A DNA stretch of 64,000 bases from Amoebophrya sp. A120 (lineage: Eukaryota; Protista; Dinoflagellata): NCBI GenBank assembly GCA_905178155.1, contig CAJINV010000005.1, forward strand, positions 2,172,054 through 2,236,053. Reading direction: 5' to 3'. The position numbers and the translations under genes are program-made. The notes under the pieces were generated by a model. That model did not search any database. It was not told where the DNA came from and saw only the letters and a program-made list of their open reading frames with translations. Below, in pieces: positions 1 to 63,553 of this stretch; position 1 is the stretch's first letter; each line of letters opens with the position of its first letter.

Positions 1-2767
1 GCTAAAGCCCGCGAATGGAACCAGTGCGGAAACCTCCTGTTCCGCAAATCCGCCGCAGATGTCCCCTTTGGACGCGGAGCAGATACGGGAGATTTTGCGC
101 GCAGATTTCGAAGAGCTCGCAGGGGCAAACTCCGCAAGCACCTCAACTTCGGCGCATGACAAACTAAATAACGCAGGATCATCAACATCTTCCCAACCTC
201 CAAATAGAATAGACCAGCAGTCCTTTCAGTCCGAGGATTTTTCCCAGCAGACCAGCGAGTTTTTGCAGCAGAACTTCGAGCTCTACGAAGATATGGATTG
301 CAAAAATGTCTGGGTCTGGAAACTTGTAATGCTGCGTTGGGAATAATGAATGCTCTGTAATGCACAGTCAAGCATGAGAAATGTCTGCGCTTCTTTGTGT
401 TGCGTTTTTCGCATGACAAACTGCGTTTTTGCATGACAGGCAACAGGGTCTCTTCTTGGACACGCATCGCAAACTTTTTGGTCATGCCAGACAAGCATGA
501 CAAACTTGCAATCTTCCAGACCCAGACATTTTTGCATTTGATAGAAGACGCCTTCGACCTCTTCGGGGCGGTGACTGTGGAAAAGGCCGTGAAGTTGGGA
601 CAGTGCGACACGCTGGAGGAAATTAGCGATTACGTCGAGAGGCACCAACACGAACCGGATTGGGCGCTTTCGATGGAAGCGATCGACTTCCGGCAGACAC
701 TGGACCTGCTGACCAAGGTGCACGATATCTACGCGGCGAAAACTACGACGGAAAGTGAGAGTTTTGGAGCCGCGATGGAACTTACGCCGAAAGCGGGTGT
801 GGACGAGAGTGTCGACGAAGGTAAAGAAATCTGAAGCTGCGTTTGGTCACACAACTGATTTCAGTTGTTTATTCGTTATTCCTTTTGCATTCGCATCTAG
901 TTCTAGATCTACCATCTACGTTCGCCGTGTTATGAAAGAGTGCCTTCTTCTACGTAAGTGCCATTGACGAGCAAGAAGTCAAAAAAGATTATACAAATCG
1001 TCACATCAAAATTTTCCTACAGACGAGCAGCGCAACCGGCGGTTGGAGCTTTTGCACAAGATTTTTTCGAAGATTGCCTACCACCCGTTCGATGACAAGG
1101 TGCGGAGTGTAAAAGCCAAAGTTATTTACGACAAGATGTCCGCCGACTTACTGCTCCAAGGGAAAGTCGCAGACTTGATGGTGACCTGCGGTTTTCAGAT
1201 AAAAGCAGAGTCCCCACGGGGCAACAACGACGCAAACAACACGACGAGCATCGCCGCGCAGGTGATGCGCGTGAAGCAGGAGAAGTTGAATTTGACGGTG
1301 CAAAATGCGAACAGCCAGGTTGTTTTTCATTTCCCGCACCAACTCGACACGGACCGGAAGGAGGTGGTGCGTTTCCATCGCGTTTTCAGCTTACTCGAGG
1401 ATCTGGTCTCCAGCTTGCAAGTGGAGGAGCTGCAGGCAGTGGAAGTTGACCTTGCGCCCGGTGGCGCGACTTCTGCAACAGAAGTGCTTTGCTCCACCCC
1501 GAACTTGTCTTCCTCCGCACAGAGCAGCAAGAACACGGTAGTGGCTAGTACGCCGTCGATACTAGAGCTGCAGCCCCCTGTAATATTAACGCCTAAGGTC
1601 GTACAACAAGGGACGACTTCTAAAGCTTCCTCCTCGTCGTCCGTCGGCAGTCCCACCCCAAACAGCAACCAGTCCTTCTCGCCGCCCGAGCGCGGAGTTC
1701 ATCCTGGCGGAGAGACCACGAGCCGGAGCAAACCGCCGCAGCAGCAGAACAGGCCCGGTAGCGGGAAAAAGGAGCCCTACATACCCGGGAAGAAACCGCC
1801 GATCTCCAAAGACGAAATGCGCCTGAAGCGGCTGGCAAAGTTGGAGGAAGGGACTTCTGCAGGGAGTAGCCTTGGATCGACTGCTGCCAAGGCGAAGTCT
1901 TCCGCCGCCCGGTCGCTGCAGGGGGCGCTGGACTACGGGACCATGAGGAGAAAAGTGGTGAAGGAGCAGGATCGGAGGGAGAAAGAGCAGGAACAGAGAA
2001 CCGGCGTGGTCAGGCGGAGAAACAAGCCAAAGGCGACGGGGTACTGGGGCAACGTGTGGAGTCTGATGGAACACAACAACACGGCGGAGAATTTCCAAAT
2101 CCGGTCGGTGCCCAACCGGAACAACCCGGTATGGCGGTCCGAAGATGATCCGATCAAAAGAGGCAATGATGGCTTTTCGACAGGTGGTCGTGGCACTCCC
2201 TCGTTGTCTGAGCTGACGGACCGAAAAGCGAAGTTCTTCAACCTGCAAGACGTGGAAAACCTCCGGTGGCGCGACGCGATCCGGGACACCCCGAAATACG
2301 CAGAGTCGTGGTGGAACAGCCAGCCGCAGTCGACAAATTACAGCGAGGTGGCGCGAAGGAGTTACGACCCGGCGTATTTGGGGCGGAAAGCGCTGGACTA
2401 CACGAATCGTTTTCGGGGCGAAAACGGCCTGCCACCTTTGAAATGGAATGAAGCTATGGCGCAGATCGCGAAAAAGCACGCGGAACAGATGGCGAAGGGG
2501 GAAATGCCCTTCAGTCACGACGGGTTCAACGAACGAGTTAGGCAATTCCCCTTCCACAGCTACAGTTCAGCGGAAAATCTGGCGTATAACCAGGGGCACG
2601 CGGACACGGCCGGCGTCGCGGTAAACGGCTGGATACACTCGCCGGGACACTGCAAAAATTTGTTGTCCCTGACAAATTTGTGCGGGATAGGCGTCGCGGG
2701 CCGTGCGGATGGGACTTTCTACTTCACCCAGCTGTTTGCGAAAACGGCCGGGGGGCTGGCGCCATGA
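1..2767 (+). CDS. PUB-like + C-terminal CAP/SCP domain protein (5'-truncated by window)
   Basis: Frame open from position 2; joined across introner 292-543 and GT-AG intron 821-1022 to ORF 1043-2767. PUB-like ELLHKIFSKIAYHPFDDKVRSVK; CAP motifs NRFRGENGLPPLKWN, FSHDG, AENLA, WIHSPGHCKNLL, FYFTQLF. Confidence 0.8.
292..543. mobile_element. Introner family A (TIR element acting as non-canonical intron)
   Basis: TIR core TGCAAAAATGTCTGGGTCTGGAA / TTCCAGACCCAGACATTTTTGCA; TSD GAAGA (287-291, 544-548); removal gives ELYEDAFDLF in frame. Confidence 0.92.
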
Positions 2768-5037
2768 ATCGTTCTCATTCCGTGGTATTCTTGTACGTAG
2801 TAGACCCACTTGATGGCCGCGGCTCTGAAATTGCAAACCGTCCGCAGATGAGTTTTGCTTGATTTGAGAAATGTTACTGACTCGCTTTCAGGAACCATTA
2901 ACTCATGATGCAAATTCCGATTTTTCCTCAAGGGAGCAACCGCGACCGGACAGGAGACGGAGACGCTTAAGGTGCGGAGCATTTTTTCTCTAAGCGATTA
3001 GGATTACACTGCGGCATTGCTGTTCGCTTCTCTTCTGGTAAGTGTTTGCCTCTTCGTTTTGGCCTGCTGCTGCAGGGAAGCCAATATACCGCAGCAACCA
3101 CATCACAGCACGCCAGTGCGATGGTTCCGACTGGTACCAGGCCAGGCGCTCCCTGGGATACCCATGGCGCGGCTAGCTGCGCCCCATTTTGATCGTGCGG
3201 GGCCGCCAGAGTTGCTAGCCACGCACCGCGGAGGCGGTAGGACGCAACGGGCCCGGCGGGGCCCAAGAACGCGCCGAAGGCCGTGCATGTGTCGATCAAC
3301 CTGCCGACTTGCGGAAAGTGATGAGCCCCAAAGGCAGCGAAGCGGCGCCCGAGAGGCACCCGCGCCGGGCCAACAAGAGGGGCGCCCCGTGCCGCTTCCG
3401 GGCCCTGGTCTCCTCTTCGGAGGATGGGCGCGAGGAATGGCGCCGGATTCCTGCCGAGGCGGGAGGGGCGCTCGCCGAGCAGCTCGAGCCCTCGGCGCCA
3501 GCCCGGACGCGGCGCGGCCGGTATCTATTTCCGGCGCGGGCGAGCTGGAGGAATTTCGTCGACGGCAAGTGGTACCTGGGCCACGTGATCGACACGAAGG
3601 CGGCGGCCCGCCAGGTCTACAACCCGGGCAAGGATGTCCCGGCGGCCAGGCGCCTCCTCGCTTGATGCCGGCCCTACTTCTGCGGTGCGCAGTAAGGTAA
3701 AAGCCAAAAGAACTGCGCTGACAAAACACAGCAGAGAGCTGGCCCCGGCCCCGTGCAATATGCAGAACGAAGGCTGCGCAAAGCACGGGCCCGCAAGGGG
3801 CGGGCCCCTTGCTGCGAGACACGAGAGAGGCCGGGGGCTGCTTGGCGGGCCCTAGGTGCAGCGCCGCCCTGCGGCAGCGATTGGGGCGGCGCGCGCCAGC
3901 TGCGCAATTTGGCCGGCGCGGGCAGCGGGCCCGCCCGGAGGAACGAAGGCGCCCCGGCGCCGTAGCGGCGCGCGCCCGCGTCGGCAGTCGGCGGGGACAT
4001 GCCGCCGGGGCCGCTGGGAAACAGAGCGGCGCGAGGGCCCCCGACCTACCCGCCATCTGCTTCGTCGACCAGCGCCGCCACTGTGAATTCGACCAAAAGC
4101 ATTCTCGACTACATGCGGTAGCTGTCGCCACGCACGGCAAAACACTGCGCGCGCCTTGCATGTTGACAACACAGCCACAGCTTCTGGCTCTGCCGGGGCC
4201 CGATCAAATTCGGGCCGGGCCGACCGAGGGAGCGAGGCCAGGCCGTGCGGCTACCTGGAACGCTCGGCGGGAAAGAAGCAGGGCGCGGCGTAAATTGCAA
4301 GCGGCCCCCAGCGGCGGGTCCCGCAGCGACATCTGTAGCGAGACCAGCCTCGGCCCTCCTGCAGGCTTGAAGGACTGCGCGCCCGTTGACCTTCTTGACA
4401 GGCTGGCACTTCCGGCCGGAGGCGCTTGGCGGTGCTTCCGTCTGGGGAGAGGCACGCCGCAGCAGCATCTCGGGCCCCGGCCCTCCCGCGATGCGCCTCC
4501 TGCCGCGGCCGGCCTACCTAGCGCCGCCCGGCGCCGGGCGCCGTTGCACGGGTGGGCGCCGTTGCGCATATCGGCCCGCGGCCGCCGGGGTTGGCCCGTG
4601 CGACCACTGGCATTGGTTTCGGAAATTGGCGCCGGGGCCTCCAGGCCGGGCGCAGATTGGGTAGTGAATCTGAAGGCGCGACGTCGCCGTCTGCTTGCGC
4701 GTGCCTATATTGCTAGCAGGCCGCCGTGGCCGCCGCTCTCGATGCGCAGTGCCTCACTTTTCCATCTTCCGTATACGTAAGCACACATTGATTGAAAATG
4801 TTGAGGATATCAGGATCATCAGAAAACTTCTGTTCGCGCCACGCTCAGTCACTTAGAACGATCCTAAAGCAAGCAACCTGATCCGGAGATCAAATGAGGA
4901 GCTAAAAGCAAAAATGAAAGAAATGCCGTGATCCTGACCGAGTATCTACTTTTTTGCCTCTTTCCGAGTCAAGTTTCGACCTTTCTATTTTCTGAATTTT
5001 TCCCTCAGTTGACTTGAAAAGATCAAGTATACAACCT

Positions 5038-5113
5038 CTAGTGGACGAGCAAAGATAGACTCCCCACGTACATACAAACTCCTAGTGGACGAGGTATATA
5101 CTCCCCACGTACA
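5038..5113. repeat. Short imperfect direct repeat (2 x ~44 bp)
   Basis: CTAGTGGACGAG...ACTCCCCACGTACA occurs twice in intergenic DNA. Confidence 0.6.
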
Positions 5114-5562
5114 CACTGAAGAGCACAACAAAATAGAAACACGAAGAGCGCTTGTTGTGAGTTGCAAGTTTACAGCGCGTACACAAGTAGTAGCAGAAAC
5201 TCACCGATTTGTAGCAATAAGATTTCTACATCTAAAAGTAGACTTCTGAAAGTCGATACAGTCGAAACTTCTTTTGATAATCCGCTTGAATTTGTTTACG
5301 ATAGAAAACCGAAGAAAACTCAAAGTTGTAATTGATACACAGAAGAGTAAAACAATACTGCGAATTCCGTCCAGAAACCGCTTTGCTTTTGACGGCTTTT
5401 ACATTTTTGATTTCATTTATTAAAAAACGCTTATCTCAAAGTCTATCAATTTGGATTTTTCGCATTCCATCAAACAAACTTTATTTGTACCCAGTACCAG
5501 ATAACCGTATCTAACCCTAGCACATCGATCTTACAAAAATTATACCCAAAAGTTGGTACAAA

Positions 5563-8500
5563 ATGACGACCACCCCGCTACTGCCCGAACCCGGGAGCAG
5601 TCCAGCGACGTCCTCCAAAACGCCGCTTGCCAACGGGGACGAGCCACCTAGCAGTAAAAGGGACAGTTCCAAAATCAGCCACGACGCAGATGGAGCATCC
5701 TCTTCTTCCGCCCACGAAAATAATGATCACACCCGTGACTCCAAGGAATCCACGCACAGCAGACGCAAGAATTCGAAGGAAAAGGAAAACTCCAAAGAAC
5801 CACACGGAAATAATGCACCTGCCGGTCCGTCGAAATACCGCAACAAGCGGGACAAAGGACAACATCAGCACCAGAGCAACAAAACCGACAAAACGAACAA
5901 CCACCCCTGGTGGCGGAAGCGGAAACGGAAGGAGTTGACCGAGGGGATCGTGAAACTGAAATACGACACGGAGGACAAGCAGTACGTGTTTATCACGAAT
6001 GAAGAAGTATCCGCCGAGTACGCGGACAGCCCCGACATCTTCGCGCTAAAACGCGACTTCAAGGACGGGGAATGGCCGCTGGTCAACCGCGGGGACAAGG
6101 TGAAATTCTACCTGAAACAGTCCGACGACGGCACGAAGCCGATCGCGAAACGGGTCCGGTACGGCGCGGACGCCGGCGCTCGGGCGGAGCGGAAGGAGCA
6201 GGTTGGAAGCAAGAAGGAGATTTTCCCGAATTACTACACCGTTGAGAAAGTCCGGGCCGGGTTGATGGACGGAAGTTTGCGGGAGGGGATTTTGCGGGTG
6301 AATCCGAAAAAACCGTCAACCGCGTACGTGGATTTGGGATCAGCCAAGGACACGGCGAACAACGAACGGGATTTGCTAATCCAGGGCCACTCAAACCGAA
6401 ATCGCGCGGTCCACGGTGACCGCGTGGTGGTCCGGATTTTGCCGGAAAGGGAGGAGGACGCGCGTAACGCAGAGCTGAAGGCGAAAAAGAAGATCGAGGA
6501 CAGGTCGGAAACTATGATGTTGAAAAACATGGCGAAAAAAGCAATCGACCTGCAGGACGAAGCACTAGGTGGTGACGCCAGTCCGAATAGACCGGCGACC
6601 GATCTGCAGGATGCGTTGGACGCCGCGCTGGCCGATTCCTTTGATAATTTGAATGTTTCTACGGGCGGTGACAAAAAAGCGGAGGAAAAATCCTCTGCTT
6701 CGAAACGAACCAACGGTGTTGATGCAGCGGATCTAGGATCCGACGAGGATGAGATTGAGTCCGACGCAGAAGCCGATGTGTTGGACGAATTAGCGGAGGA
6801 AGAGGAGGAGGATTGGAACGACGAGGAAGAAGACCGAAAAAGCAATTTCAACACGGCACAGGTCGTCTTCATTGCCGACTACTCCGGCCGAAATCGAAGC
6901 TTCGTTTGCACCCTGTGCCCGAACAATAGTGAAGGCACGGCGGGGAAGACGTCGATGGTGAAGGAGAACGAGAAGTTTGTGAAGGCTTGTCCGGTGGATA
7001 AAAAGTTCCCGTGGATTTTGATCTACTTGAGGGACGAAGTGAAGAAGAAGCTGAAAGTCCCGGGAAAACTGGACAAATTCATGTACTGGTCCGTGAAAAT
7101 CGACAAGTGGGACAGCACGAGCATATTGCCGCTCGGGAATTTGGCCGAGAAACCAATCGGCAAAGCGGGGGACGCCGAGGCGGAGGTGATGAAGGCATTG
7201 GAGGAAACGGAATTGGCGGAACACAACAAGGACTTTGACGACGACATTTTGGACGAGGTACTTACTTTTTTGATGCACAAATCTCAACTCTTCGTCATAG
7301 TCTAGAAGAATTGAGTTTATTCCTGTAGGTCTTGCTGTAGCTTACACCGCAAGAATTTTTGTGGGCAGTTGTAGAACCTCAAACTGCTGAAGTCGTGTAG
7401 GAGTAGCAGTTCCCTTTTGATTATATTTCGCACTAAAAATCCGTAGTTCGAATTCCTGCCACGACCTACTGTTTGCTTATAAAAATCCTCTTATCCCAGG
7501 TCGAAGAGATCGTCCAACGCACCACGGAAACCTTCGAAGAAATCGCGGAGAAGCGGATAGACCTCCGGAAAGAACTGAAAAACGGGGTCCGGATCATGAC
7601 GATCGACCCGAAAACCGCCCGTGATCTCGACGACGCCATCCACGTGAAGAAGATTAACAACGAAATAACCGAATTCGGGGTGCACATCGCCGACGTCGCG
7701 CACTTCGTGAAGCCGGGGTCACACGTGGACAAAATGGCGAAATTCAGATGCACCTCCGTCTACATGCCGGACCGCGTTCTGCCGATGTTGCCCCATGCCC
7801 TCTGCAACCACCTGTGCTCGCTCAATCCGAACGAGAACAAGTGCGCCTTCTCCGTGTTCTTCCGCATCGACAACAACGGCGAGTTGATGGTGGACGAGAA
7901 AAACGAGTATCAATTGCAAAAATGTCTGGGTCTGGAAGATTGCAACTTGTCATGCTGTCTCTGGATTCCAAAAAAATCTGTATTGCGTGACCAACAACAG
8001 GAGTCCAGTTTGTGTTACGAAGGGAGGGCATTTCTCATGCGGAATAGGCATCAGGAAGCCTTCTATCTAAAAATCTGTGATGCTAGATCATGCATCACGT
8101 GCACTATGGCTCATAAAAAATATACATCACAAATCCCGGAATCTTCCAGACCCAGACATTTTTACAGTTGATAACGAGCCCTGGATCGCGAAAACGGTGA
8201 TCAACACCTGTTGTCGCTTCAACTACGACCAGGTCCTATCAAATGTAAAAATGTCTGGGTCTGGAAACCTGTAATGCTAAAAATGAATGATATACGCACT
8301 GCAGTACACAGCTATGCATGACAAATTTTTTGGCTGCCATGTCTTACGTATTCCGCATGGCAAACTGCGTTTTTGCATGACAGATGAGAGGGCTTTTTCG
8401 TGCCTATGCAACACAGATTCTCGAGTCATGCCAGACAAGCATGACAAACTTGCATTCTTCCAGACCCAGACATTTTTGCATTTGATAGGTCCAGGAAATC

Positions 8501-11026
8501 TACGACTTCGGCGGCGCGCAGGCGTTGACCGGCGACGCGCGGCCGGAGGTCTACCACGGCGCGAGCTGGGAGGAGTGCGTGAAGGATCTGTTTCTGATCT
8601 ACAAGGTCTGCACCAAGATCCGCAACGCGAGGTTCGGAAACGGGGCGCTGTCGATGCACAAATCGAAGCTGATTTTCAAAACGACCGACGCCTCCGCCGG
8701 CATGCCGACGGGGTACGCGAAGGAGGTGCATTCCCCCTCGCACTGGGTCATCGAGGAGTTGATGCTGCTCGCGAACAAATCGGTCGCCCGCGTGCAGCAG
8801 AAGCACGACGTGTTTGACAGCTTAGCCGTTCTGCGGAACCACCCGCCGCCGGACGAGAAAAAGGCGAAACGGGTTTTGGAAACCATGCAGCTCTGCGGAA
8901 TTGAGTACAGCAACTCCACGGCGGGAGACCTACACAAGTGCCTCACCAAGATCCACAAGATCTACGGAGAGGAAGTCGCGGCAACAGCCAGCATGCTCAC
9001 CATGAAGTGCGGGATGCGGCCAGCGTCTTATTTCATCGGGGAGGACGAGCCCCCGCACCACTTCGCCCTGAACTTTGACCAGTATACGCACTTTACAAGT
9101 CCGATCCGAAGGTACGCAGACGTGATGGTGCACCGGGTTCTGAACGCCATCTTGGAGAAGAAAACGAAGGAGCAATTCATGATCGAAGATTTGGACGACG
9201 CGGACCGCGAGGCGGTGCCCGAGAAGGATGACAATCTGCTCGGGAAATTAGGCGGGGGAAGGGGCGGAAATAAGCACGCGGAATTGAACACCGACGGACT
9301 GAGCGACGATGACTTGAACGACCAAGCTGGCAGCTTGCGGGGAACGCACAGGTAGGGTGATTTTTGTAAGTAGAAGTACAAACAAAGTGAAATTTTTTTG
9401 AAGCAGTTTTGTGTGTAGGAGGATGCGGGGGATGCGAAGGTTCGGGTAGGTGGAAAAATACTTTCACACTCAAAATGCGTACTACACAAGTCAATTTTCT
9501 AGTTGTCTTAATGCCGAAGCCTAATGGTTGTACATGACAAGCATAAAACTCCAGGCGTGGTGGCGGTCCCAAGCAGAACTACCAGAAAAACCTGAAGAAC
9601 ATGATGGACGACTACAATTCCTCTGGCTTCGTTCAACAAGACACTCTTCGCCCGAAAAAGGAAGACTACCCAGAGGCAAAAACCGCCACCGCGGCAGCTG
9701 CTTCTGGTGATGCTAAACCCACAGACGGTAGCACAACTGGGCCGGAGTTGAATGAGGACGGCACATTGAAGGTGGATGATGACGACAACAACGAGGAATC
9801 CGACAAGAAGTGCCAGGCGAACATCGCGATGGGCAACCAGTGCAAGTCGTGCAACAAAAAGAAAAAGGCGTCGAAGGACTGCCAGGAGGAACTGGACCGC
9901 GCGTGGTTCTGCATGCTGCTCCGGGACCAGAAGAACTGGTGGTACCGGGTATCCTAAGTGAAAACGTCCCCACACCAGAGTCAAATTGGGAAATCTGCTA
10001 GACAAATCCACCAGCTTTGGTTGTTTCGCATGACAGGCTTGCCCTCGTAGTGTAATCCTGTTTAGCTTATTCAGCAGCATCACAGATCTGGCATATCTTG
10101 CTGATTCTAGCATCACAAAGCCCAAAACACGACTAGAAAATGCGTCTCATGGGTCTCGGCATGAGAAACATTCTCAGCATGCAGATTTGCATTACAGCTC
10201 TGGGGTGGGGACGTTTTTACAAATGATACCGGGCCGCGACGGTAACCGAGATCCAGCCGGACGGCATCACTGTGTTCGCGCACGAGATTGGGAAGGAGAA
10301 GAAAATTTTTGTGACTGACATCCGGACGCACCACGACATCCCGAACCTGTTCGTAAAGGAGGTGAACGACGAGGTGATGCTTCCGGAGGAATTTGAGTAC
10401 TGGAGCAAGTCCCACATGAAGGTCACCTGGAGCAACAAAAAAGTGGAAGACACGCAGTTCCTTTACGGAGACGAAAGACCAGACTTGGAGGAAACCGAGG
10501 GGCAAGTGCTTGGAAGTACTATACGTTTTTACTTTAGCTGTCTTGTTTCGTGATTGATAGAAGCCGCGTCGCTATAAAAAGTTTACTATCTTGAGGTCCT
10601 ACATGATTTCGTACACATGCAGAAAAATTCTCAATCGCCATTGCTATCCGAATAACTACCACAGGCGACGTCGCTCCCCCGCCGGGAATGGACGTGATAG
10701 ACATTGAACAGATGACGGTGGAGCAGGACATCCATCTCCTCTCCGTGGTCCCCATTGTACTGATCCCGACCAACACCGTCCCAATAGACTTTGTGATGCT
10801 GCTCGTTTCCCCCTACCATGCGCAGTGGCGAAAAGTGGAAATTACGGACAAGGAGAGGCGGGGGTTCAACAACGCACCGGTGGAGTCGTTCGATGAAGAC
10901 GGCGACTCGGATGACGACGACAACGAGGACTACGGAACGCAAAGACGACCGCCGAAGAACGCGAAGGGAAAAGGAAAAAAAGGCGGAAAGAAGGGCGGTG
11001 GCAAAGCGAGAGGGCGGGCGAGCTGA
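5563..11026 (+). CDS. DIS3L2: DIS3L2-like RNase II/RNB family 3'-5' exoribonuclease
   Basis: RNRAVHGDRVVV (CSD), TIDPKTARDLDDAIH, GVHIADVAHFV, TSVYMPDRVLPMLP, HWVIEELMLLAN, HFALNFDQYTHFTSPIRRYADVMVHR; no PIN domain seen. GT-AG introns 7258-7499, 9352-9554, 10516-10664 plus three introners. Confidence 0.88.
7908..8173. mobile_element. Introner family A
   Basis: Family A TIRs; TSD ACGAG; removal gives DEKNEPWIAKTVIN. Confidence 0.92.
8237..8487. mobile_element. Introner family A (also readable as GT-AG intron 8233-8488)
   Basis: Family A TIRs; TSD GGTCC; removal gives NYDQVQEIYDF. Confidence 0.92.
9950..10228. mobile_element. Introner family B
   Basis: TIR core AAAACGTCCCCAC / GTGGGGACGTTTT; TSD CCGGG; removal gives WWYRAATVTEIQPDG. 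Confidence 0.9.
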
Positions 11027-14300: not shown

Positions 14301-17300
14301 ATGGCCCCGAAGAAGGAAGAGAAGGCCCCGAAAAAGGAGGCCAAGAAGGAGGAATCCAAGGAGGCCAAGGAGGTGGACCTCTCCGTGAAACCCCCGAAGC
14401 CGGATGACGCCGCCTTCAAGAAGCGCACGGACGAAGTGTCCGCGGAAATCGACGCCAAAAAGGCGGACATGAAAAAGCTCACCGACAAAATCTCCGGAAG
14501 GAATGAAGGTATACTAGAACGCTGACATGTTCATTTTTGAGAAGAAATTTATGCTCTACAGAAAAGTTGCTCTTGCTTCCTCCCCAGATTTAAATTTTGC
14601 TTTTTCATGATCATTTCTCGCGATTCCATTATCTTTATCTCCCAATCATTGATTCGATTGTGGCACTAGTAATTGCAAATTGTGCAACACAAAAAATCAT
14701 ACTATCCATCAGGTAAGGAGGCATACGATGAGCAGAAGCAGGCCCTCTACAACAGTATGAACAGCGTCAAATCCGAGCAGCAGGCTCTCATCGCACAGAA
14801 GAAGGCCCTGCAGGACCAGAAGCGCAACACAGAGAAGGAAGGTAGCACATCTGATGCTTTAGTTTTAAAAGAGGGAGTTTTTTAGAATTCTGTACACGTC
14901 CTGTTGCGGGACGGAATTTAAAGAGTGAGAGAGAGAAAAACGTCGATGTCCAGCAATGTCTTTCGAAAAAGAGAGTGTGAGAGCCATCTGATTGTCTGCC
15001 GAAAGGTGGAACCCCGGAAATTAGCCTTTAGATTTTATGACGCATGTTGATCATGCCCAGCAAACACTTTAAAAATTTGTTTGACCACGCCTCAATCCAT
15101 CGAAAAAACAGAGCGTGAGGCTAAGCGTCAGCTGTCCGCACTGGAGAAGGATGTTGCTCACTTGACGGAGGAGGGCATCGACAACGAAATCAAGAAAATC
15201 GAGTACACCATGGCCACCCGATCCATGTCGCTGAAGGAAGAGAAGGAATACATGCAGCAGATCAAGAAGTATTTTCATTTGATAATTTGTCTTTCTAGAC
15301 TTTGCTACTTGCAAATAGCTCGGTGTCGTGTCAAGCGATAGAAGTCATGCGATGGTTTTCATCTTTAGTGTGTAGTGACTTAGTTTTCGAATCGGTGCTG
15401 GCTATAACATGCATGGGAAGCTGCTGCTGCTGTAATACATCAACGCATATGCACACTTTCACTTTATCCTTATCAGGCTGAAGGCCCAGCGCCCCCAGGC
15501 TCAGAAGCAGCAGAAGGAGTACGAGGCCATGAAGGCGAAGGTGGATTCCGGCGCTCAGGTCGACCATAACGCTACTTTCGCTGGTATGCATTGCAAATGT
15601 GTCTGGGTCTGGAAACTTGTGATGCTGACTTGGGAACAGTGGACACAATGCAATACGCAGCCAAGCATGACAAGTTCTTAAGCTGCTATGTGTTGCAAGA
15701 GCTGCATGACAGGCAAAGTGCGCTTTTGCATGACAGGCAGGCGACTCTCATCTTGCTCATGCAGCACAGAGTTAGGAGTCATGAGAAACACGCATGACAA
15801 ACTTCCATTCTTCCAGACCCAGACATATTTGCATTTGATAGCTGACCAGCTGACCCAACTGGAAGCCGCCATCAAGGAGAAGAAGAGCTCGCATGAGGAC
15901 TTGTAAATACAGATTTTTGCTTTCGATTTGTTGTGGTGCGACCAGTGGTGCAACTCGAAACATTATAAGTAGTCGTATCGGTCTTGGCCTGATGGAAGTC
16001 GGAATGCAAATTCGAACACCAAATTTATCCTCGTCTAGCAGCACTTGTGGAACTCAGAGTTGCGGAAAGGGGATGTCAATATCTAAATCCCGCAATCTAT
16101 CCAAAAACACAGCTATGAGCAGATCCAGAAGCTGAAGCAGGATCGTGACTCCAAGATGTCCGGTGTGTCGGAACTCATCGCCAAAAAGAAGCAGCTGGCC
16201 GAAGACGTCCAGGAGTTGGTTGCCAACCGCAACGCCATCCACGAAGAGAAGCGCGCCATGCAGAAGACGTATTGGAAGATTTTGATGATTGTTTGTGTTG
16301 CAGATAACGAATACGGAATGCAGCATATTTACCTGCTCCGTGTGTGAATGACTTTGTGTTGCATGCTTTGCAATGTATGCTGTCCTCTGTTCCACTCTCA
16401 TGCAGGCGCCCTACAAGAACTAATGATTGGCAATAACACTATGACTATCCTATCAGATTCAACCAGTGGGAGCAGGCCGAGCGCAAGAAGCGTCAGCAGA
16501 AGATCGAGGCTGAGCGCAAGGAGTGGGAGGCCAAGGCCGAGGCGGAGCGCGCCAAGTGGGAGCTGGAGCAGCCGAACCCGTACTTGAATGAAACCACTTT
16601 GTTGGAACAGACTCTGGACTACTGCAAGAACTTGCTGCCGAAATCCGAGGAAGCCAAGGCTGAAGAGAAGAAGGAAGTCAACGCTCCGGTATTTTAAAAT
16701 CATCATAATGATGACACTGTGACTGATAAGTATCAATTGAACTGCATATAACTGTTCGCATAGTCAGTTGCCGTATTTTGTCATGCGGAGACTGAATCAT
16801 CTAACGAATTTGTCTAGCAAAATCGCATATGTCAACACTAAAAACAGGATGGCGTCCGAGTGCTGATGTCCAAGAAGGACCGTGACACGGAGATGTACTT
16901 CGAAGCCACCAAGAAGAAGAGCCTGAAGAAGAAGGGTATGGTCATTTTCTCATGCGTGCTTTTGGATTACAGCAGCATCTGTTCATCGTAATTGATTCTC
17001 CCAGAATGATGTTGTCAGTCGTTTCTCCTGCAGAACGAGGTTCTTTATTATCCAGAAATCACGACATTACGGACACGGAGCAATCAATACTACAGGTGGC
17101 GACAAGGCGAAGGCTACGGCCATCAAGCACACGGCGGAAACGTTCGCGATCTTTGACCAGCTGAAGGTGAAGGCCCCGATGACCACGGAACACATCCCGG
17201 CGCTCATGGACCAGCTGAACGGTCAGCTCGCGTCCTACATGGAGAAGGTCAAGGTCTGGGAGGCCGAGCGCGCCGCCAAGCTCGAGGCCGCCAAGAACGC

Positions 17301-17346
17301 CGAGGCCGATGCCCAGGCCACAACTTCAACCAACGCGGACGAGTAA
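14301..17346 (+). CDS. Coiled-coil protein, Bfr1/proton-pump-interactor-like
   Basis: Multi-exon K/E-rich coiled coil: KPDDAAFKKRTDEVSAEI, IDNEIKKIEYTMATRSMSLKEEKEYMQQI, QPNPYLNETTLLEQTLDYCK, IKHTAETFAIFDQLKVKAP; several GT-AG introns and one introner. Confidence 0.65.
15585..15840. mobile_element. Introner family A
   Basis: Family A TIRs; TSD GCTGG/GCTGA (1 mismatch); removal gives ATFA(D/G)QLTQLEAAI. Confidence 0.88.
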
Positions 17347-24900: not shown

Positions 24901-25025
24901 TGACAACTCTGGGGCGGGGACGTTTTTACACGGGATACAACACGCAGGGACCGGCGAACCTGCAGCACCCCGAGCAGGTGGACAGGCTGCTATCCATGAT
25001 CGCCGCGAACGAGTCGAAGAAGTAG
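18996..25025 (+). CDS. WDR78: WD40 axonemal dynein intermediate chain, WDR78/DNAI4-like
   Basis: ETETQTLFAVPSLCV, EWNSHQNDLLAVAYG, LILFWSLKNPSYPERI, KHTDCVWEVKW, QWTMRKGLEQKQLMNLKR, YLVATDDGFVHRCSVSHNEQYLESFSGH, FLTCSVDWTVRLW; ~8 GT-AG introns plus 7 introners. Confidence 0.78.
19478..19795. mobile_element. Introner family C
   Basis: TIR TATCAAAA.GAAAAATCCCC / GGGGATTTTTCCTTTTGATA; TSD TCTTC; removal gives ETQTLFAVPSL. Confidence 0.9.
20794..21056. mobile_element. Introner family A
   Basis: Family A TIRs; TSD GTACT/GTACC; removal gives WRQQSTQVDSD. Confidence 0.88.
21108..21318. mobile_element. Introner family E
   Basis: TIR GAAAAAAGTGTTACAGTTACACATT / AATGTGTAACTGTAACACTTTTTTC with TAT..ATA ends; TSD CAGTG; removal gives DVGSGAEGEKK. 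Confidence 0.88.
22337..22579. mobile_element. Introner family A (opposite orientation to 8237-8487)
   Basis: Family A TIRs; TSD AACCG; removal gives GLVDGTVAVYD (WD40). Confidence 0.92.
22952..23209. mobile_element. Introner family A
   Basis: Family A TIRs (right end ...TTGATG); TSD CGAAA; removal gives QWTMRKGLEQ. Confidence 0.9.
23256..23535. mobile_element. Introner family B
   Basis: Perfect 28-bp TIR TATCCTGAGTAAAAACGTACCCACACCA; TSD ACTAC; removal gives NLKRLPNAHL. Confidence 0.93.
24654..24937. mobile_element. Introner family B
   Basis: Family B TIRs; TSD CAACA; removal gives VMRAHNTQGPANL. Confidence 0.92.
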
Positions 25026-26121: not shown

Positions 26122-26159
26122 ATCAGGTTCACTTGCTACCACTTCAACCTAGGAAAATA

Positions 26160-27302: not shown

Positions 27303-27323
27303 TACAATACGCAATCCTTTCCC

Positions 27324-48300: not shown

Positions 48301-49724
48301 GCATGACAAATCTTCTTGCATTCTTCCAGACCCAGACATTTTTGCACTTGATACGGAGGGGGAAGACCCACAGTTGGGCGGCCAGCTAAAGGCGGAGGTG
48401 GAGCGGCAGGACAAAAAGTACTATTTGACTTGTTCATTTTTGTGTACATGATGTAGTAGTTTTTTCGCTTCCTCCTATAGTAATGCTAATGCCTTAGTCC
48501 AGCAAACGAAAATCTAAATCAACAACATGAAACACCACCAGCTACGCCCTCCTGAACGACGTGCCGGAAGAAAGTGCAGACCAGGAAGAGCCGACGCCTG
48601 ACAAGGGGCTGTCCGCGAAAGCAGAGGCGAAGGAGGAGAAGAAGGAGGAGGGCGAGAAAAAGCCATCCGAGGAAGAGGACGAGACACTATACGTATAAGA
48701 AAAGTTTGTTGCTTGTCATGCTGAACAGGTGGTTGTACTGTATCGAATGAAGTTGCAGGCAGCTGCGCATGCACTTTGATTGTGAGAAACGAGCTCGAAA
48801 AATTTCGTTGCGAACACGAGTGACTTATTCATGCCCTGTTCGGTAAAACAAAAACCGAAAAACTACAGTACGGCATCGGTTTCGGCTGTGTCCTCATCAT
48901 TATTGGCATCGGCGGCGCGCTAGCGCAACAGAAGACGGAAGAGAAGGTTCCGCAGCCTGACATTGAACAGCCAGAGGACAAGAATGAAGAGGAAATTAAC
49001 GATATCACAGGAAAAAGTGTTAACGTTGACGGAATTTGTGACGCAGCAATGCATCACAAAACGTGTAAGAATTTGTCATGCATAGCATGCATATTGGGCT
49101 ACGTTTGTGATGCATGACTGCGATCTGTGAAAACCGCTAACGTTAACACTTTTTCTTGTGATAAACGAAGAGGATCTGAAGGCTGACCACCAGGCGCTAG
49201 ACAAGGAATTACCGCCGCAGACCCGGGACGAATTGATGAAGCGGGTGAACGACGAAATGAACGATAATTTGCACAAAGCTGCTGCGGTAGACGACGCAGA
49301 TGCTAACGCTGCTGCGGCTGCTGTTCCCCCGCCAGCCCAGCCACCTTCCTCCATCACAGAAGAGCTACCCAAATTGACTCCCTTGCCGAAGCTGAAAGCG
49401 CCTGCGAGGCGACAAAGCACCAGTCAGAATAAAGACGTAAGGGGGGCTGCTGCACCTACTACTGCGTCAGGAGCAGCCTCGCTACAACAAACCGCGAGCA
49501 AGTCGAAGCCGGCTGCGGTACCGACAGCACAAACGAAAGCAGGCAGCGGCAGCGCCGGGCCAGCTTCGCCCAGTTCCCCAGCTTTGGCGTCAAAAGGCGC
49601 GTCGCCCGGACTGGCTTCGAAGGCTGGGTCCAAGGCGGGTTCGATGGCGGCGCCAGCGAGTTCACCGGGACAGTCTTCCCCGGCGGGGAAAGCGACTTCG
49701 CCGGGGAGCTCGAGAAGAGCATGA
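45337..49724 (+). CDS. Hypothetical D/E/K-rich type-I membrane-like protein
   Basis: N-terminal hydrophobic segment, long acidic tract, TM YGIGFGCVLIIIGIGGALA; continuous frame after removing four introners and three GT-AG introns. Confidence 0.62.
46579..47227. mobile_element. Introner family D (long, 649 bp)
   Basis: TIR TATCCTGTGCAAAAGTATCGTA / TACGATACTTTTGCAATGCATA; TSD AGTCC/AATCC; removal gives PVLGESRVYTIDPGK. Confidence 0.82.
47762..48032. mobile_element. Introner family A
   Basis: Family A TIRs; TSD GGGCG; removal gives DVTLGVAMRKTSW. Confidence 0.92.
48085..48353. mobile_element. Introner family A
   Basis: Family A TIRs; TSD CGGAG; removal gives LEPTEGEDPQL. Confidence 0.92.
49003..49163. 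mobile_element. Introner family E (short, 161 bp)
   Basis: TIR TATCACAGGAAAAAGTGTTAACGTT / AACGTTAACACTTTTTCTTGTGATA; TSD AACGA; removal gives EEINEEDLKAD. Confidence 0.9.
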
Positions 49725-50364: not shown

Positions 50365-52191
50365 ATGTCGCCCCCAACCGCGTCCTCCTCTTCCTCCTCG
50401 CGGATTCAGTTTCACCACTTTCCCGAAATCGACAGCACGCACACCTTCGTCGAGCGGACCTATGGCTCGTTCGACCCGAGCATCCTTACCTGCGTGTCTG
50501 CGGACTACCATATTGTGAGGAAAAATCCCCCCTCCCCATGTCAAAACGGCATTTCTGATGCTGGATTTGTGTACACAAATCAGCTTTGTATTGCAGAGAG
50601 ACATTGCGGCCAGATCCCCAGGCTAGGTAGGGGCGAATGGGTCTAGTTGTTCAGCATGGCAAACGGCTGCCCATTAGGCCCAACAGCATGACAAACCGCT
50701 TCCATAATGGGGCGGAAGCTTCTGCCCTTCTCTCCTTGCAAGACAGACGGGATTTGTGGCCTCAAATCAGCAAGACAAATTTTCGAAAGCATACCTTTTC
50801 AATATGGGGAGGGGGAGTTTTTCCTTACGATATACCAGACCGCGGGGAGAGGGACGAACAAACGCGTGTGGTCCGCGCCGAAGGGAAAAAATCTGCTCAC
50901 GACGTTTTACTTCACCCTGCCGGACCGGTGTAAGGCGCAGGCGGCGTCGTTTTTGCAGGTACAGGTTTCTTTGTTGTTCAGCATCGATCTCTTGGTCGAA
51001 GCCGGTTCCTTGATCGTGCATTTCATGTTTACGAAGTAGGCCACTCTACTGCACAAAACTTCAACTTGACCATACGTGAAGATGTTTTTGACGAGGCTTG
51101 TTGTACTTCGTTCACAAAATAACTGCACGGAAAAAAACTAGGTCGCCGCCGTCTCTTTTCTCGACACGGTTCGGAGAAAAGCCTGTCGCGGCGTGGACAT
51201 CAGCCGCTTGCAGTTTCGACTGAAGTGGCCGAATGACGTCATGTGCAACGAGAAGAAAATGGGCGGGATTCTATCCCGCATGGTCGCGGATCCAGTCCGA
51301 CACAGCTCGAGTTCACGGGACGTCAGCAGATTGATCCAGGGGACGAAGCCATCAGCGGGAGGTGGTATGCCAGTGGTTTTATCTTCCAGTAGTAGCACCA
51401 GCGCCGTGAACAACGCGACATCCAATACCTCCGCCGTTGAACTCTCCCCCATAATCGGCACAAACGTAAACACGTCTTTCGTGCAGTCCCCGAACAAAGC
51501 CGAACACTCCGTCGTCCTCGCAGATTTGACCCCTCCGAGTCTGACGCACGCCGCGGCGGCGACGGCAGGGAGCAGTGTGGGCGGCGCAGTTGATGGTGTC
51601 CACCAGCTGAGCTCCCCGACGTTTGCGGAGAAATTAAGTAAGGAGATCCCCGGGACGCAGTCCTATTCCCTTCCGATCGAGAATTACACAAGGGATTTCT
51701 ACTACAGCGGAAGCAGCAGCAGTGAGAGTGGTACTATCGAAAGCAAGAAAGAGAAGCGGATCGGGATGATACTGTCCCTCGGGTTGAACGTGAATTTGAC
51801 GCAAGACGACTTAGATTTGGTCATCGCCAGCAACAACGGGATCAAAAATTTCGCCTGGCCGCCGACCAGCTTGCGGCAAGAGATCGGGAACCCCGTGCTG
51901 CAGTTTGAAGTCGACCGAGTCAAGGAGTTAATCGCTTTCGACCTGTACGATATCATCCTCAAATTCGAGCAAGTCGGGTACCTGCAGTTTCTGCGCGCGA
52001 TCAACGACAATTTGCTGTACGAAAACGAGAAAATCGTGTTTGCCCCGCGGGGCCGGGAGCACACCGACCGGGTGGAGGGGATCTTCCGCGGGCTGGACGA
52101 CGAGGGGTGGCTAATTTTGGAGTCCCTAGTCACCGGCGGGACGGAAAAATACTGCAGTGGCGAGCTGTGTCCACCGGTGAAAGTCAGGTGA
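50365..52191 (+). CDS. Biotin protein ligase (BirA/holocarboxylase synthetase family)
   Basis: EIDSTH, ADYQTAGRGTNKRVWSAPKG, LKWPNDVMCNEKKMGGIL, LGLNVN, GIFRGLDDEGWLIL; one introner and GT-AG intron ~50959-51141. Confidence 0.9.
50511..50832. mobile_element. Introner family C
   Basis: TIR GGAAAAATCCCCCTCCCCAT / ATGGGGAGGGGGAGTTTTTCC; TSD TACCA; removal gives SADYQTAGRG. Confidence 0.9.
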
Positions 52192-58838: not shown

Positions 58839-59481
58839 ATGGTGAAATCCACCCCGACCCGGCTCTACCAGAAGGGCGTCATCACGTCCTACAAGCGGGC
58901 CCGCAAGGACCTCACCCCTCGTCAGTGCCTGGTCAAGATCGAAGGTAAAAGAAAGAAGACTTATGTCAAAGTGCAATTTTCGCATGACAGCATCTACTTC
59001 GCTTATTTCATGAAATCTAAATTCCGCATGACGAAAGTTTTTGATACCAATGTGAATTTTCCCCAACACAAACAAAACACTCAGGTGTCAACACCCAAGA
59101 GCAGACCAACTTTTACAAGGGAAAAAAGGTGGCTTTCGTCTACAAGTGCAAGAAGGAGAAGAAGAACTCCAAGTTCCGGTATTGATAGATTTAGATTTTG
59201 ATTTTTTCGCATTACAGGTGTCTTTTCTCAAGTTCAGCATGCATGGAAATAAGTCGGTTTCTCACTGTCAAATTGTCATGCGAAGGAACGAGAGAAGTTT
59301 GATTTGGTATTTATTCAAAAACCACACGATCATCTCGAAAAAACAAAACAGCGTCATCTGGGGCAAGGTTCGCCGCGCTCACGGACACAACGGTATGGTG
59401 CGTGCTGCTTTCTCCACCAACTTGCCGTGCACCGCTTTCGGCGCCCCGTGCCGCATCATGATGTACCCCTCCAACATCTAA
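58839..59481 (+). CDS. RPL35A: 60S ribosomal protein L35a (eL33)
   Basis: RLYQKGVITSYKR, LVKIEGV, FYKGKKVAFVYK, VIWGKVRRAHGHNGMVRAAF, RIMMYPSNI; two GT-AG introns. Confidence 0.95.
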
Positions 59482-60167: not shown

Positions 60168-63100
60168 ATGGAGGCAGCCCTGAGTGCTTTGACTTCCACC
60201 GGCGCTACTAGCAGCTCGTCGTCGTCAGTGTCGCGGAAGATTGACGTGCAAAAATCTAGAAATGCGGCTGCTCATCCACGCAATTCCACCCACGGTCCAG
60301 CAGCACTGCTGCGGAAAAGCTGGGAAGTGCGAGGTCTTCAGGAGCGAGCGAGGAGATATAACTTTCGGTCTACATTCTCTCCCGCAAAGCGCATCGCTCG
60401 ACTTTTTGGGACAATACTAGCACCTCGGACCGCAAAACAAGCGCAAACACAACTCGAGCCGGTCTCTGCGCCAGCCTCTATCGCGCGGAAGACACGTAAT
60501 CGTAGGAAGCGTCGAGTACGAAAGAAGATTATGAGTGACACGAGTAACAGAAGAATTATCAGGAGTCTCACAGCTGCTGCCACATTTTGTATCTTCACGA
60601 TTCTCAATACGACCCATCCAACTCTCGCTGGCGACTACGATGTGTCTGCGTGGACAAACTGGCCCGCACTTGCCGGTCTTCGCTGCGAAGAAATGGTTGA
60701 TTTTTACCCGGTTGGCGCAGAAGGTATGGATTGGCACGATGATATCGGTAGGGACGCGGTCAGACTCTGCGCCCATGTCGAGGAATGCGCGGGGATTATG
60801 CAGTACGTAGGGGAGCAAGAAACCGGGACGTTTTTCTGGAAGGGTAGGCCGCAATTCTGCAAAGCGGGCGACGGAGAGGGAAACAAGTTCCCGATTGTAA
60901 AGAAAAACCACGACTGGGTGACAATCTACAAACCGGAGTACCTCTTCCGCGGCTGCCCCGAAAAGTACCCGACGTGCAAAATCGGCGCGGATCCGTGGCT
61001 GTTGGGCGGTGGGGAGCAAGAGCTTGCAGCTGCAACCGGTGCTGAAAGGAAAGCTGCGTCAGCAGCCGCTCCTGGTCCATCTAGCACACAGCTGGATCCG
61101 ACCGCAAACTATGACTACGTCTTCACGTCGTCCCTCGACATGCCGTTTTTCGCGAAGAAGGGAAAGTACATCCACCTGGACATGCGGGAGTTCACGGGGA
61201 AGGGGCTTGGCGCGTCAGAAGCGAAAGCAGGCTTCATGTCGGTTTTCTTTGACCACTACGATGCGGTATGTCCGGGCGGGATCGACATTCACATGGCGAT
61301 TGAGGAGATGGGGTTGGACGACGTGTACATAGACGACGGCACGCCGAAGGAGAGGAAGAAGGCTTTCGGGCCGTATCAGTTTACGTTTTTCTGCGGGAAC
61401 TTCCACAACGAGACGAGCTATCCGCCACAGGCTTTGGTGGATACGTTTGTGCTCGGGAGTTTGCCTCTCGTTCCGTATGAATTGTATCGAGATTTGGCGA
61501 AATTCCACTTTCACCTACCGGACGCGGGGCAGGGGGTGAGGCGCCTACGATTGAAGTCCGCCGAGGATTACTTGAGTGACTTGGCGGGGAATCCGAAGAA
61601 AGAGGAATTGATGGCTTACAAGCAAACATTTTTACTCGTCATGCAGAACTTGCTTGCCTACCGGTACCGAATAACGGCGCCAGAGCGGATTGCGAACGGG
61701 ATGTGTCAGTTGTGCAAGATCAAGGAAAACGACAAGGACGGAGGTACAGTGAGTTTCAGGATAAGAGTGGTGATCTCCAAGGAAATTTTCGAGTGATGGG
61801 TTTGGAGATAATTTCTGCATGAGAAAGCCGCCTGCGGATGAATGAACGCGTAACACAAATTCAAATCATGACAGACAACATCAAATACGGGTTCGCGATC
61901 ATGAGCCGGCGCAACCAGAAAGAAGTTCGCGCGGGCGTCCGCCGCACCTGGGCAAGTTGGATCCGCCGGAGTGGGCACTTTTTCGAAAAGTGGACGTCGC
62001 TGAAAATGAGCCAGGTAATGAGGAAGAAAATTTGTTTTGCTACCGCCCGCGTCAAAGCAAAAAATTCATTTTGCATGCACCGTAGAAAGGAAAATACTCT
62101 CGTCATAAGTATCTATCTTCAGGTTGACTACCGCTTCTTCGTGGGACACCGGGGTCCGGACAATCCAAACGACATTGACGACGAGCCAGATGTGGAAGAA
62201 GTTGGGGTTGTCGAGTCCTACCGCACCATCAACGTGAAGGCGCTCTCGATGGTTGCGCGGGCGAACGAGTTGTGGCCGAAACTGACGTTTCTCCTCCGCT
62301 GCGACGACGACATTTACTTGCGTGTTTTCCCACTTTTGTACCACTTGGAGCGCCGCACGCCCGTCATGTACTGGTGGGGCAATTTCGACCACGGCAGCAA
62401 CGTGGTGCGGAATGAAACCCATCCGCACTACAACACCTTCACGCAATTACCGGAACAAGCGCACCCGATGTGGGGCGATGTCTTCCCGTTGTACGCGCGG
62501 GGGTCGCTTTGGATCATGAGCAGTGATTTACTCGAAAAGGTGGTCGAGGCGTTTCGGGAGGAGGAAAACGCTTACAAGAAGGGGGGCGACGCAAATTTGG
62601 CGGAACTCGCGAGAACCATTCCGCACCCGGACGACCCCATGATGGGGATTTTTGTGGAGAATCTGGTGGATCGAGGGACGAACATCAATGTGGACGATAG
62701 AGATTGGAATTTGTTCTCGTTGAACCCCTCGTGTGATGCGAAATTCTCCATGCTGCACGAACGGACCTGGATTATCCACCACGTCAACGCGGAAACCATG
62801 GACTGCTTCTTCGACATTGACATGAAGAACTTCACCGCGTTCCCGACCCCGTTTCCGTTACAAAGGGACTTGCCGTCGCTCTGCACCTGCGCGATGAATG
62901 TGACGGAGGAAGACAACGGAGACTGGGACGAATTGGAAGATCTGGCGCCCGGGCAGGACCACTGGTACCCGAGGAAAAGATTCAACCCAGAACTAGAATT
63001 CGTGGACGAACGGGATCAGGAGGAGGACGTTGCCACGTTGGACGCGCCGTCTTCTAGAAGTAGTGCTGGGAAAAGCACCAGCAGCAGTGGTTCATCTACT

Positions 63101-63553
63101 GAGGAAGGTCGTGCAAGAACAGATTCAGACAGCCCAACCGCTGCGTCGGAAGAGGATCAAGAATCGTCTGACGGTGCGCCATATCAAGTGTAAAAATGGC
63201 TGGGTCTGGAAGAGTGCGCGACTTGTTATGCAGCTTTTCCATGACCCATGAGGTCTGGAATGCAGGACCTAGCGTGACAGATTCTGTGCGATCTCTTTCA
63301 TGCCTATCCTGCGTGAGAAACTCCCTTGCGACTTGGTCAAAACTGGGCGACTTTTGGCAATCATGCAACACAGATTTTTGCATTCTTCAGATTTAGCATG
63401 ACAAGTTGCATTCTTCCAGACCCAGACATTTTTACATTTGATACGCCATCCGCTGCGGAATCTTCGGCGGGGTCTGAGGGAGCGGTAGAGGAACCGGTGG
63501 CTACTGAAGATGCTATTGGAGTGGGAGAGCCAACTTTGGTGGAGGAAATGTGA
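60168..63553 (+). CDS. GT31 (beta-1,3-galactosyltransferase-like) glycosyltransferase with long N-terminal extension
   Basis: FAIMSRRNQKEVRAGVRRTW, ESYRTINVK, FLLRCDDDIYL, FPLYARGSLWIMSSDL, PDDPMMG; two GT-AG introns and one introner; start may be ATG 60531. Confidence 0.78.
63182..63443. mobile_element. Introner family A
   Basis: Family A TIRs; TSD CGCCA; removal gives SDGAPSAAESS and extends the CDS to the stop at 63553. Confidence 0.92.

Follow-up and report, generated by a model that had tools for sequence, protein, structure and literature searches.

Inverted-repeat introner elements in nine genes of Amoebophrya sp. A120: exact absence from probable RNA, and candidate routes of removal

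The closest described relatives of the elements considered here are the introners of the dinoflagellate Amoebophrya sp. A120, a marine parasite of algae in which more than 60% of introns are reported as non-canonical, 29,850 of them repeated (Farhat et al., 2021; PMC7789003). According to the accessible text of that paper, A120 introners have a mean length of about 240 nt, carry inverted repeats (motifs of 8–20 nt) that start with TAT followed by seven more variable bases and then three or more A, and are flanked by direct repeats of 3–5 nt, a 5-bp example of which appears in a supplementary legend. They are described there as RNA-supported, mixed with GT-AG introns and variable in splice position, and the mechanism of their removal was left open. 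The same text reports U2, U4, U5, and U6 as found in A120 and U1 and snRNP27 as undetected. Gozashti et al. (2025; PMC12130899), in the portion of the work available, describe A120 families of DNA-type introners with terminal inverted repeats (TIRs), about 150–320 bp long and with mostly non-canonical ends. We found no openly readable paper that resolves the removal mechanism in Amoebophrya. Here we analyze a 64,000-nt stretch of A120 DNA (contig CAJINV010000005.1, positions 2,172,054 to 2,236,053; hereafter "the window") in which 23 inverted-repeat elements interrupt nine genes, and we compare these elements with the described systems.

Self-comparison and two inverted-repeat scans of the window recovered 23 TAT…ATA elements of 161–649 bp in five families (14 A, 4 B, 2 C, 1 D, and 2 E; Table 1, in which each element can be identified by its first position), the same count and family split as in a first-pass annotation that had been made by a model from the sequence alone. 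A lax scan returned 29 hits, the 23 elements and six others that are at chance level (three shuffles gave 4, 7, and 10). The TAT…ATA ends are intact in 21 of the 23, the exceptions being 22952 (ATG) and 43690 (ACA), and between 17 and 25 of the terminal 25 bases are complementary in every element. The annotation had assigned TIRs and a 5-bp direct repeat to each element; all 23 do have both, but the repeat is perfect in 20 and contains one mismatch at 15585, 20794, and 46579. At 43690, residue F325 of AP-1 mu-1 is encoded by both flanks, and the repeat is therefore a duplication of pre-existing coding sequence. Element GC content is 40–49%, identity between elements within the window reaches 91%, and stop codons occur in the three forward frames of all 23. 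Sliding the junction through the repeat gives GT-AG only at 8233–8488 and 33799–34059 and GC-AG nowhere, just as first annotated.

Gene models were built by removing each element with one repeat copy, plus 36 GT-AG introns placed by hand, and all nine read to a single terminal stop. Retaining any single element truncated the protein in 23 of 23 cases, and shifting the removal by 1–2 nt did so in 91 of 92 trials, the exception lying near a C-terminus. The earlier statement that removal restores both the frame and conserved motifs every time stood for the frame; the motif part failed at six elements (292, 15585, 21108, 29556, 49003, and 63182), which sit in low-complexity or unannotated stretches where the frame alone is restored. 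Calling the host genes essential was an overstatement.

Of ten runs listed, X1 to X4 are RNA by a guess, and no run that covers 5500–11100 is on record as RNA. Evidence on transcripts came from assembled contigs of X1 and X2, two samples of one study; the contigs examined cover two stretches with 11 of the 23 elements (rows 7908 to 24937 of Table 1). All 11 covered elements were absent together with one repeat copy. Six appear as joints listed directly in both samples (261, 323, 248, 263, and 289 nt, plus a 285-nt removal at 23256 that is merged with the neighboring intron in one joint), and for the other five the summed offsets (527, 636, and 705) equal the prediction exactly. A canonical in-frame intron of 258 nt is available at 15585 through a GT at −1 and an AG at +1; the contigs instead skip 261 nt, at a depth of 384, and retain the right copy of the mismatched repeat. 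A piece boundary at 20794 likewise points to retention of the right copy. Because the right copy is retained at 15585 and this is also indicated at 20794, the 5′ cut must lie at least 1 base upstream of TAT. Element 22952, which has lost its final A, was still removed exactly. In one series of WD40 contigs the assembly of the skipped form extends over seven elements, and mismatched repeats are crossed as well. The first-pass annotation had proposed removal that is independent of GT-AG and coexists with GT-AG splicing, and had named retained elements or the use of nearby GT-AG sites as outcomes that would speak against it. Neither was seen: the elements were missing in 11 of 11 cases, the in-frame GT-AG pair at 15585 went unused, and the same contigs skip GT-AG introns. 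These observations support the view that the elements behave as non-canonical introns, and we consider genuine removal at the RNA level very probable. The independence they show is from GT-AG and does not extend to the spliceosome.

A further run of unrecorded type, X5, has a flat depth of 42–48 and retains GT-AG introns, and is thus probably DNA. At every site listed, its single-copy contigs cross from the unique flank into the element; rare element-free forms may exist beyond the joints listed, and X5 is possibly the source of the window sequence itself. Two raw RNA runs (X8, 51 reads; X9, 6 reads) map nearly entirely to repeats with foreign flanks and were uninformative for junctions. Reads of X8 at 7924–7956 and 23159–23201 match the family A repeat and then run into other sequence, i.e., that library contains family A copies of other sites or of another strain.

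The elements of the window are A120 introners, a class already known in this strain and the one to which the first-pass annotation had linked them. This follows from a protein match to A120 and from the presence of every feature tested. Over a 69-residue query, exon 1 of gene 3 matches an annotated Amoebophrya sp. A120 protein with 100% identity, and the gene model reads like it, so that the host is strain A120 or one nearly identical to it; that protein reads FADQ across the 15585 site, although its annotation may rest on the same RNA data. Relative to the accessible description in PMC7789003, the elements share an inverted repeat joining both intron ends, the end motif (TAT, then seven more variable bases, then three or more A), a flanking direct repeat, family repetition, and absence from transcripts at non-GT-AG junctions (all 11 covered). 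They differ in that their stems are longer than the published 8–20 nt, the direct repeat is 5 bp as against 3–5 nt, and, where variable splice positions were published, the cut can be confined to positions that precede the inverted repeat by 1 nt or more. For the families of Gozashti et al. (2025), the available portion of PMC12130899 gives automated duplication lengths of 2–5, compared with 5 bp in the window.

A pattern scan yielded 148 loci (407 kb) on JACKZZ01 contigs. These belong to a relative and not to the same strain, since identity to the A120 orthologue is 89% for one exon. All five families are present there at up to 97% identity, and BLAST relatives were found in the fetched loci for 23 of 23 window elements (best matches 77–97% identical), those of families E and D being partial or shorter. 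Over nearest pairs in the loci and the window, the repeat length was 5 in 192 of 236 and 6 in none, which establishes a 5-bp target duplication. A search anchored on the inner repeat gave 286 elements, and 27 of these were excluded because their duplications were shifted or poor; 260 were carried on, 213 of them oriented relative to the gene by two agreeing models (51 of 56 calls correct in cross-validation) and 47 dropped as unresolved. In the 213 oriented elements base usage within the duplication is flat (position 5 is G in 68 of 213, vs. 30% G in the flanks), and family A lies in the same orientation as the gene in 42 cases and in the opposite orientation in 44. Insertion is blind to both orientation and target sequence. 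In contrast to standard U2 introns, GT/GC…AG ends were available in any register in 13 of the 213 oriented elements, and in 2 of 23 in the window. Two elements (L062:3329–3608 and L147:76–330) have flanking repeats of apparently 7–8 bp instead of 5 bp. No empty orthologous site was found among the fetched loci, which share no unique sequence with the window.

Given that junction bases are arbitrary and orientation is irrelevant, it must be the symmetrical ends that determine where the cut falls. Folding predicts a hairpin with z of about −6 (two elements), and over 206 elements the predicted mean symmetric pairing is 0.83–0.96 at positions 11–28 and 0.43–0.88 at positions 1–10. Normal donors in the window begin with GTA in 39 of 40 cases, with position +4 free (T15, C11, A9, G5). 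The GT-AG introns show no GTAAGT consensus past +3, and their 3′ ends, rich in A and C, lack both a pyrimidine tract and any obvious branch motif; donors and 3′ ends reduced in this manner are consistent with the reported lack of U1. Terminal variants of the elements are rare (16 in 259 elements, 1554 sites) and skewed by strand: the outer two positions vary twice at the 5′ end and eight times at the 3′ end, while the third position varies five times at the 5′ end (T to C, giving TAC) and once at the 3′ end (Fisher p = 0.035, post hoc). Both exceptions at the 5′ outer positions are preceded by G, resulting in GT and GC donors in the register 1 nt upstream.

With modest confidence, we therefore favor removal from pre-mRNA by a relaxed U2-type spliceosome that is guided by the hairpin rather than by GT and AG, because the skew of the end variants mimics donors and because U1 and snRNP27 are reported undetected. 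Base pairing of the inverted repeats in the transcript would juxtapose the two ends; the preferred register would place the cut 1 nt before TAT and hence TA(T) at +2 to +4, so that N/TAY (the slash marks the cut) would stand in place of the normal G/TAN donors of this genome. The candidate for the branch point is the A three bases from the 3′ end of the element, and distance would set the 3′ cut, after the first 4 nt of the right duplication. Both signals would be present whichever way an element is inserted, since its ends are palindromic. The exact register, with its cut 1 nt before TAT, we put forward tentatively. In the most complete version, which we regard as rather doubtful, the palindromic end would be a full, orientation-proof splice code of N/TAY donor, mirror-image branch A and distance-measured 3′ cut, with which a U1-less spliceosome would remove any insertion plus exactly one duplication; exons would then be a cost-free target for one transposon lineage, and some GT-AG introns bearing the motif GCATNACA (see below) would be its domesticated descendants. 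Neither GCATNACA nor the donor-mimicking register appears in the accessible text of PMC7789003. The accessible accounts of Fritillaria borealis describe introns that are also transposon-derived and non-GT-AG and attribute them to a modified U2 spliceosome (PMC11282704, PMC13326754); AG-AC/AG-AT ends dominate and U1 is kept in that species, whereas in Amoebophrya junction bases are unconstrained and U1 is reported undetected.

Several results weigh against a hairpin-guided spliceosome with donor mimicry. The strand skew depends on 16 variants, on model-based strand calls and on three calls made by eye, the outer-position count alone gives p = 0.11, and the rate of terminal variants (16 in 1554 sites) is not clearly below that of mismatches in the duplications (32 of 1295). 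The element of locus L142 has a left duplication that departs from the right one at position 4, where the A120 orthologue has K, as expected from the right copy, and not R; this leans toward a cut at least 2 nt upstream rather than 1 nt, unless a K-to-R change was accepted. The sense hairpin has no excess of G·U pairs (123, vs. 135 A·C) and the sense strand no folding advantage (p = 0.40), so selection on the stem at the RNA level is not supported. Neither G at the first intron base nor AG at the 3′ end predicted by the model is enriched (for AG, 19 cases against 14.7 expected), and the predicted TAT/ATA pairing (0.70–0.79) would need to be opened. Finally, retention of the right copy is also expected from template switching by reverse transcriptase.

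Two other candidate signals were tried and rejected. A bias toward GATA at the 3′ end, seen in the window, was not upheld in 173 oriented elements, and polarizing 26 duplication mismatches by AT bias (by eye) gave mixed directions everywhere and contradicted one case known from RNA and one known from an orthologue. A search for orthologues of the position-3 mismatches at L036 and L048 found none, L048 returning just weak repeat-like matches.

The alternative that survives best, though we judge it unlikely, is a spliceosome-independent system, either an endonuclease with an RNA ligase or a transposase-derived protein, that would recognize the ends in their paired state and cleave at set distances, on the model put forward for the nonconventional introns of euglenids. 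The absence of any junction-base preference, the complete orientation symmetry, the unused GT-AG pair at 15585, and the L142 duplication, which points away from the donor-mimicking register, all agree with it. Euglenid nonconventional introns, as far as the available text of PMC12501133 and PMC11282704 describes them, share with the window elements the paired ends (here predicted folds), flanking direct repeats, variable junction dinucleotides, coexistence with GT-AG introns and a probable origin from MITEs (transposable elements of the miniature inverted-repeat type); their paired ends are held at fixed spacers and they are released as circles. Against such a system, the euglenid CAG at +4 to +6 and CTG at −8 to −6 are absent from the end profiles of the window elements, whose stems are longer (25–30 bp), the strand-skewed end variants match spliceosomal donor positions, and a spliceosome core is reported present in a genome whose normal donors are already reduced to GTA.

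Precise programmed or somatic excision from the transcribed DNA, with RNA that never contains the elements, we consider very improbable: the elements do carry transposon ends, and a precise loss leaving one duplication copy would produce an identical cDNA, but the X5 contigs, probably DNA, enter the elements from unique flanks at every site listed, and a strand skew of end variants is not expected. Least probable of all is a cDNA artefact in which reverse transcriptase skips the hairpin by switching from one direct repeat to the other while transcripts (from pseudogenes or with translational rescue) retain the elements, since retained elements would break all nine genes; direct repeats with stable structure are known to cause false non-canonical junctions (described in the accessible part of PMC4176328), such a jump keeps the right repeat copy as at 15585 and 20794, and the RNA evidence consists of assembled contigs of one study, in which cDNA alone cannot discriminate, but frames are intact over 23 insertions (AP-1 mu and biotin ligase included), the skipped form was assembled at a depth of 384, across the seven WD40-gene elements and across mismatched repeats, and element GC is just 40–49%.

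Turning to the origin of the elements, the motif GCATNACA occurs in 210 of 213 oriented elements and peaks near both ends in mirror image. It is common to all families, has no strand bias outside the window, and is a putative transposase-binding site shared by them all. A sense-strand excess in the window (50 vs. 29) was not upheld in 190 other elements (287 vs. 328). GT-AG introns, 6.6 kb in all, also contain the motif: it has 10 occurrences there, in 9 of 39 introns (e.g., 9352–9554, 23826–23966, 58945–59084, and 59179–59351), compared with 0.5 expected and 0.16 per kb in exons. The motif may be a mark of introns, or part of the normal introns may derive from elements that have decayed. The elements have the features of MITEs, being short, non-coding, flanked by TIRs and a target duplication of fixed length, and present in many copies. 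Their spread would be driven in trans by a DDE transposase acting on the TAT-N7-AAA ends and GCATNACA. No transposase was found in the 407 kb of loci, where elements with perfect duplications reach only about 1 kb; no genome-wide search was made. Family 38 of Gozashti et al. (2025) has integrase-like open reading frames (ORFs) according to the available text of PMC12130899, and no such element was found here. Integrase-type transposons of the IS3EU/GingerRoot group, as the accessible part of PMC10045372 presents them, share the TA..TA termini and short inverted repeats; they usually make 6-bp duplications, unlike the 5 bp of window-type elements (0 of 236 at 6), a length that Ginger2 and some IS3 subgroups also produce. 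The element pattern gave no matches in viral contigs and a single isolated match in bacterial genomes, without a partner end and taken as chance.

Some elements have unrelated interior sequence of 200–700 bp (46579–47227 in the window; L022:3314–3770, L043:571–1051, L044:3315–3945, and L069:4024–4995 elsewhere) between intact ends, with perfect or near-perfect duplications, and the interior appears dispensable. Identical terminal decamers (e.g., TATGCATTGC and TATCCTGTGC) recur across families, and the two ends of one element often differ, a pattern that suggests exchange of ends between copies. Exons between neighboring elements can be as short as 41–70 nt (8179–8236, 21062–21107, 23215–23255, 34061–34130, and 48038–48084), and the 15-nt exon at 23541–23555 has an element on one side and a GT-AG intron on the other.

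Pfam identified CAP, RNB (DIS3L2-like), WD40, PP2C, adaptor mu, biotin ligase, and galactosyltransferase domains in the host genes, and no match for gene 7 in the two exons tested. We take gene 4 to be a dynein intermediate chain of the WDR78-like type. All gene models built lie on the + strand; one-strand gene clusters have been reported for Amoebophrya. A 167-bp unit with short palindromes is repeated in 2.8 tandem copies (30948–31396) within a GT-AG intron of 1122 nt in the PP2C gene. The 5′ end of this gene has a GC-rich 1.2-kb stretch that is enclosed by a 52-bp direct duplication (26070–26121/27303–27354) and a 29-bp inverted duplication (26168–26196/27266–27294). GC-rich stretches at about 3000–4780, 26500–27100, and 37200–39300 contain long ORFs on both strands, 11 of which were tested against Pfam with no match; they are possibly another class of repeat. 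An Rfam search of the window gave no match.

Table 1. Introner elements, their host genes and element-free genes in the window (X1 and X2, probable-RNA samples).
Feature	Position	Strand	Remarks
Element, family A	292..543		Duplication GAAGA; CAP-domain gene
Element, family A	7908..8173		Duplication ACGAG; RNB domain, DIS3L2-like gene; missing from X1 contig, offset summed with 8237
Element, family A	8237..8487		Duplication GGTCC; one register GT-AG (8233-8488); summed offset 527 = 271+256
Element, family B	9950..10228		Duplication CCGGG; DIS3L2-like gene; summed offset 636 including two GT-AG introns
Element, family A	15585..15840		Mismatched duplication GCTGG/GCTGA; joint 15579>15841, 261 nt, X1 and X2
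Element, family C	19478..19795		Duplication TCTTC; WD40 gene; 323-nt joint, X1 and X2
Element, family A	20794..21056		Mismatched duplication GTACT/GTACC; X1 piece end 20787; summed offset 705
Element, family E	21108..21318		Duplication CAGTG; summed offset 705 = 268+216+221
Element, family A	22337..22579		Duplication AACCG; 248-nt joint, X1 and X2
Element, family A, end ATG	22952..23209		Duplication CGAAA; 263-nt joint, X1 and X2
Element, family B	23256..23535		Duplication ACTAC; then 15-nt exon and GT-AG intron; joint 23255>23684, 9 exon letters between
Element, family B	24654..24937		Duplication CAACA; 289-nt joint, X1 and X2
Element, family A	29556..29817		Duplication CTCAA; PP2C gene, low-complexity part
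Element, family A	30116..30377		Duplication ATGCT; PP2C gene
Element, family A	33800..34055		Duplication CGAGG; PP2C domain; one register GT-AG (33799-34059)
Element, family A	34131..34386		Duplication GCGGT; PP2C domain
Element, family B, end ACA	43690..43977		Duplication CTTCA; AP-1 mu gene, F325 at both flanks
Element, family D, unique interior, 649 bp	46579..47227		Mismatched duplication AGTCC/AATCC
Element, family A	47762..48032		Duplication GGGCG; in-frame GT-AG option 3 nt shorter
Element, family A	48085..48353		Duplication CGGAG
Element, family E	49003..49163		Duplication AACGA
Element, family C	50511..50832		Duplication TACCA; biotin-ligase domain
Element, family A	63182..63443		Duplication CGCCA; galactosyltransferase gene, low-complexity tail
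Gene 1, CAP domain	2..2767	+	5′ end beyond window; 1 element, 1 GT-AG intron
Gene 2, DIS3L2-like RNB exoribonuclease	5563..11026	+	3 elements, 3 GT-AG introns
Gene 3, 461-aa coiled-coil protein	14301..17346	+	Matches annotated A120 protein P0001; 1 element, 7 GT-AG introns
Gene 4, WD40 protein	18996..25025	+	7 elements, 9 GT-AG introns
Gene 5, PP2C phosphatase, long low-complexity N-terminus	27321..34764	+	Start uncertain; 4 elements, 5 GT-AG introns
Gene 6, AP-1 adaptor mu subunit	42038..44431	+	1 element, 5 GT-AG introns
Gene 7, acidic protein	45337..49724	+	4 elements, 3 GT-AG introns
Gene 8, biotin-protein ligase	50365..52191	+	1 element, 1 GT-AG intron
Gene 9, galactosyltransferase	60168..63553	+	1 element, 2 GT-AG introns
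Element-free gene, TLC-domain protein	about 11785-13095	+	Pfam
Element-free gene, Cas1p-like acyltransferase	39178-41211	+	Pfam
Element-free gene, ubiquitin/UBA/PUB protein	55309-57806	+	Pfam
Element-free gene, ribosomal L35Ae	58840-59481	+	Pfam

The elements occupy 10% of the window and lie inside coding exons. To the published picture of A120 introners this analysis adds the 5-bp duplication, blindness to orientation and target, a common subterminal motif and a bound on the 5′ cut. For the base-exact removal of introns with arbitrary junction bases, mismatched duplications reveal which copy is retained in the mRNA, and hence the position of the cut, and rare end mutations indicate which bases matter on the transcribed strand. 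If the donor-mimicking model is true, it would explain how a transposon can fill coding exons at little cost, and would show the extent to which a spliceosome can relax the GT-AG rule.

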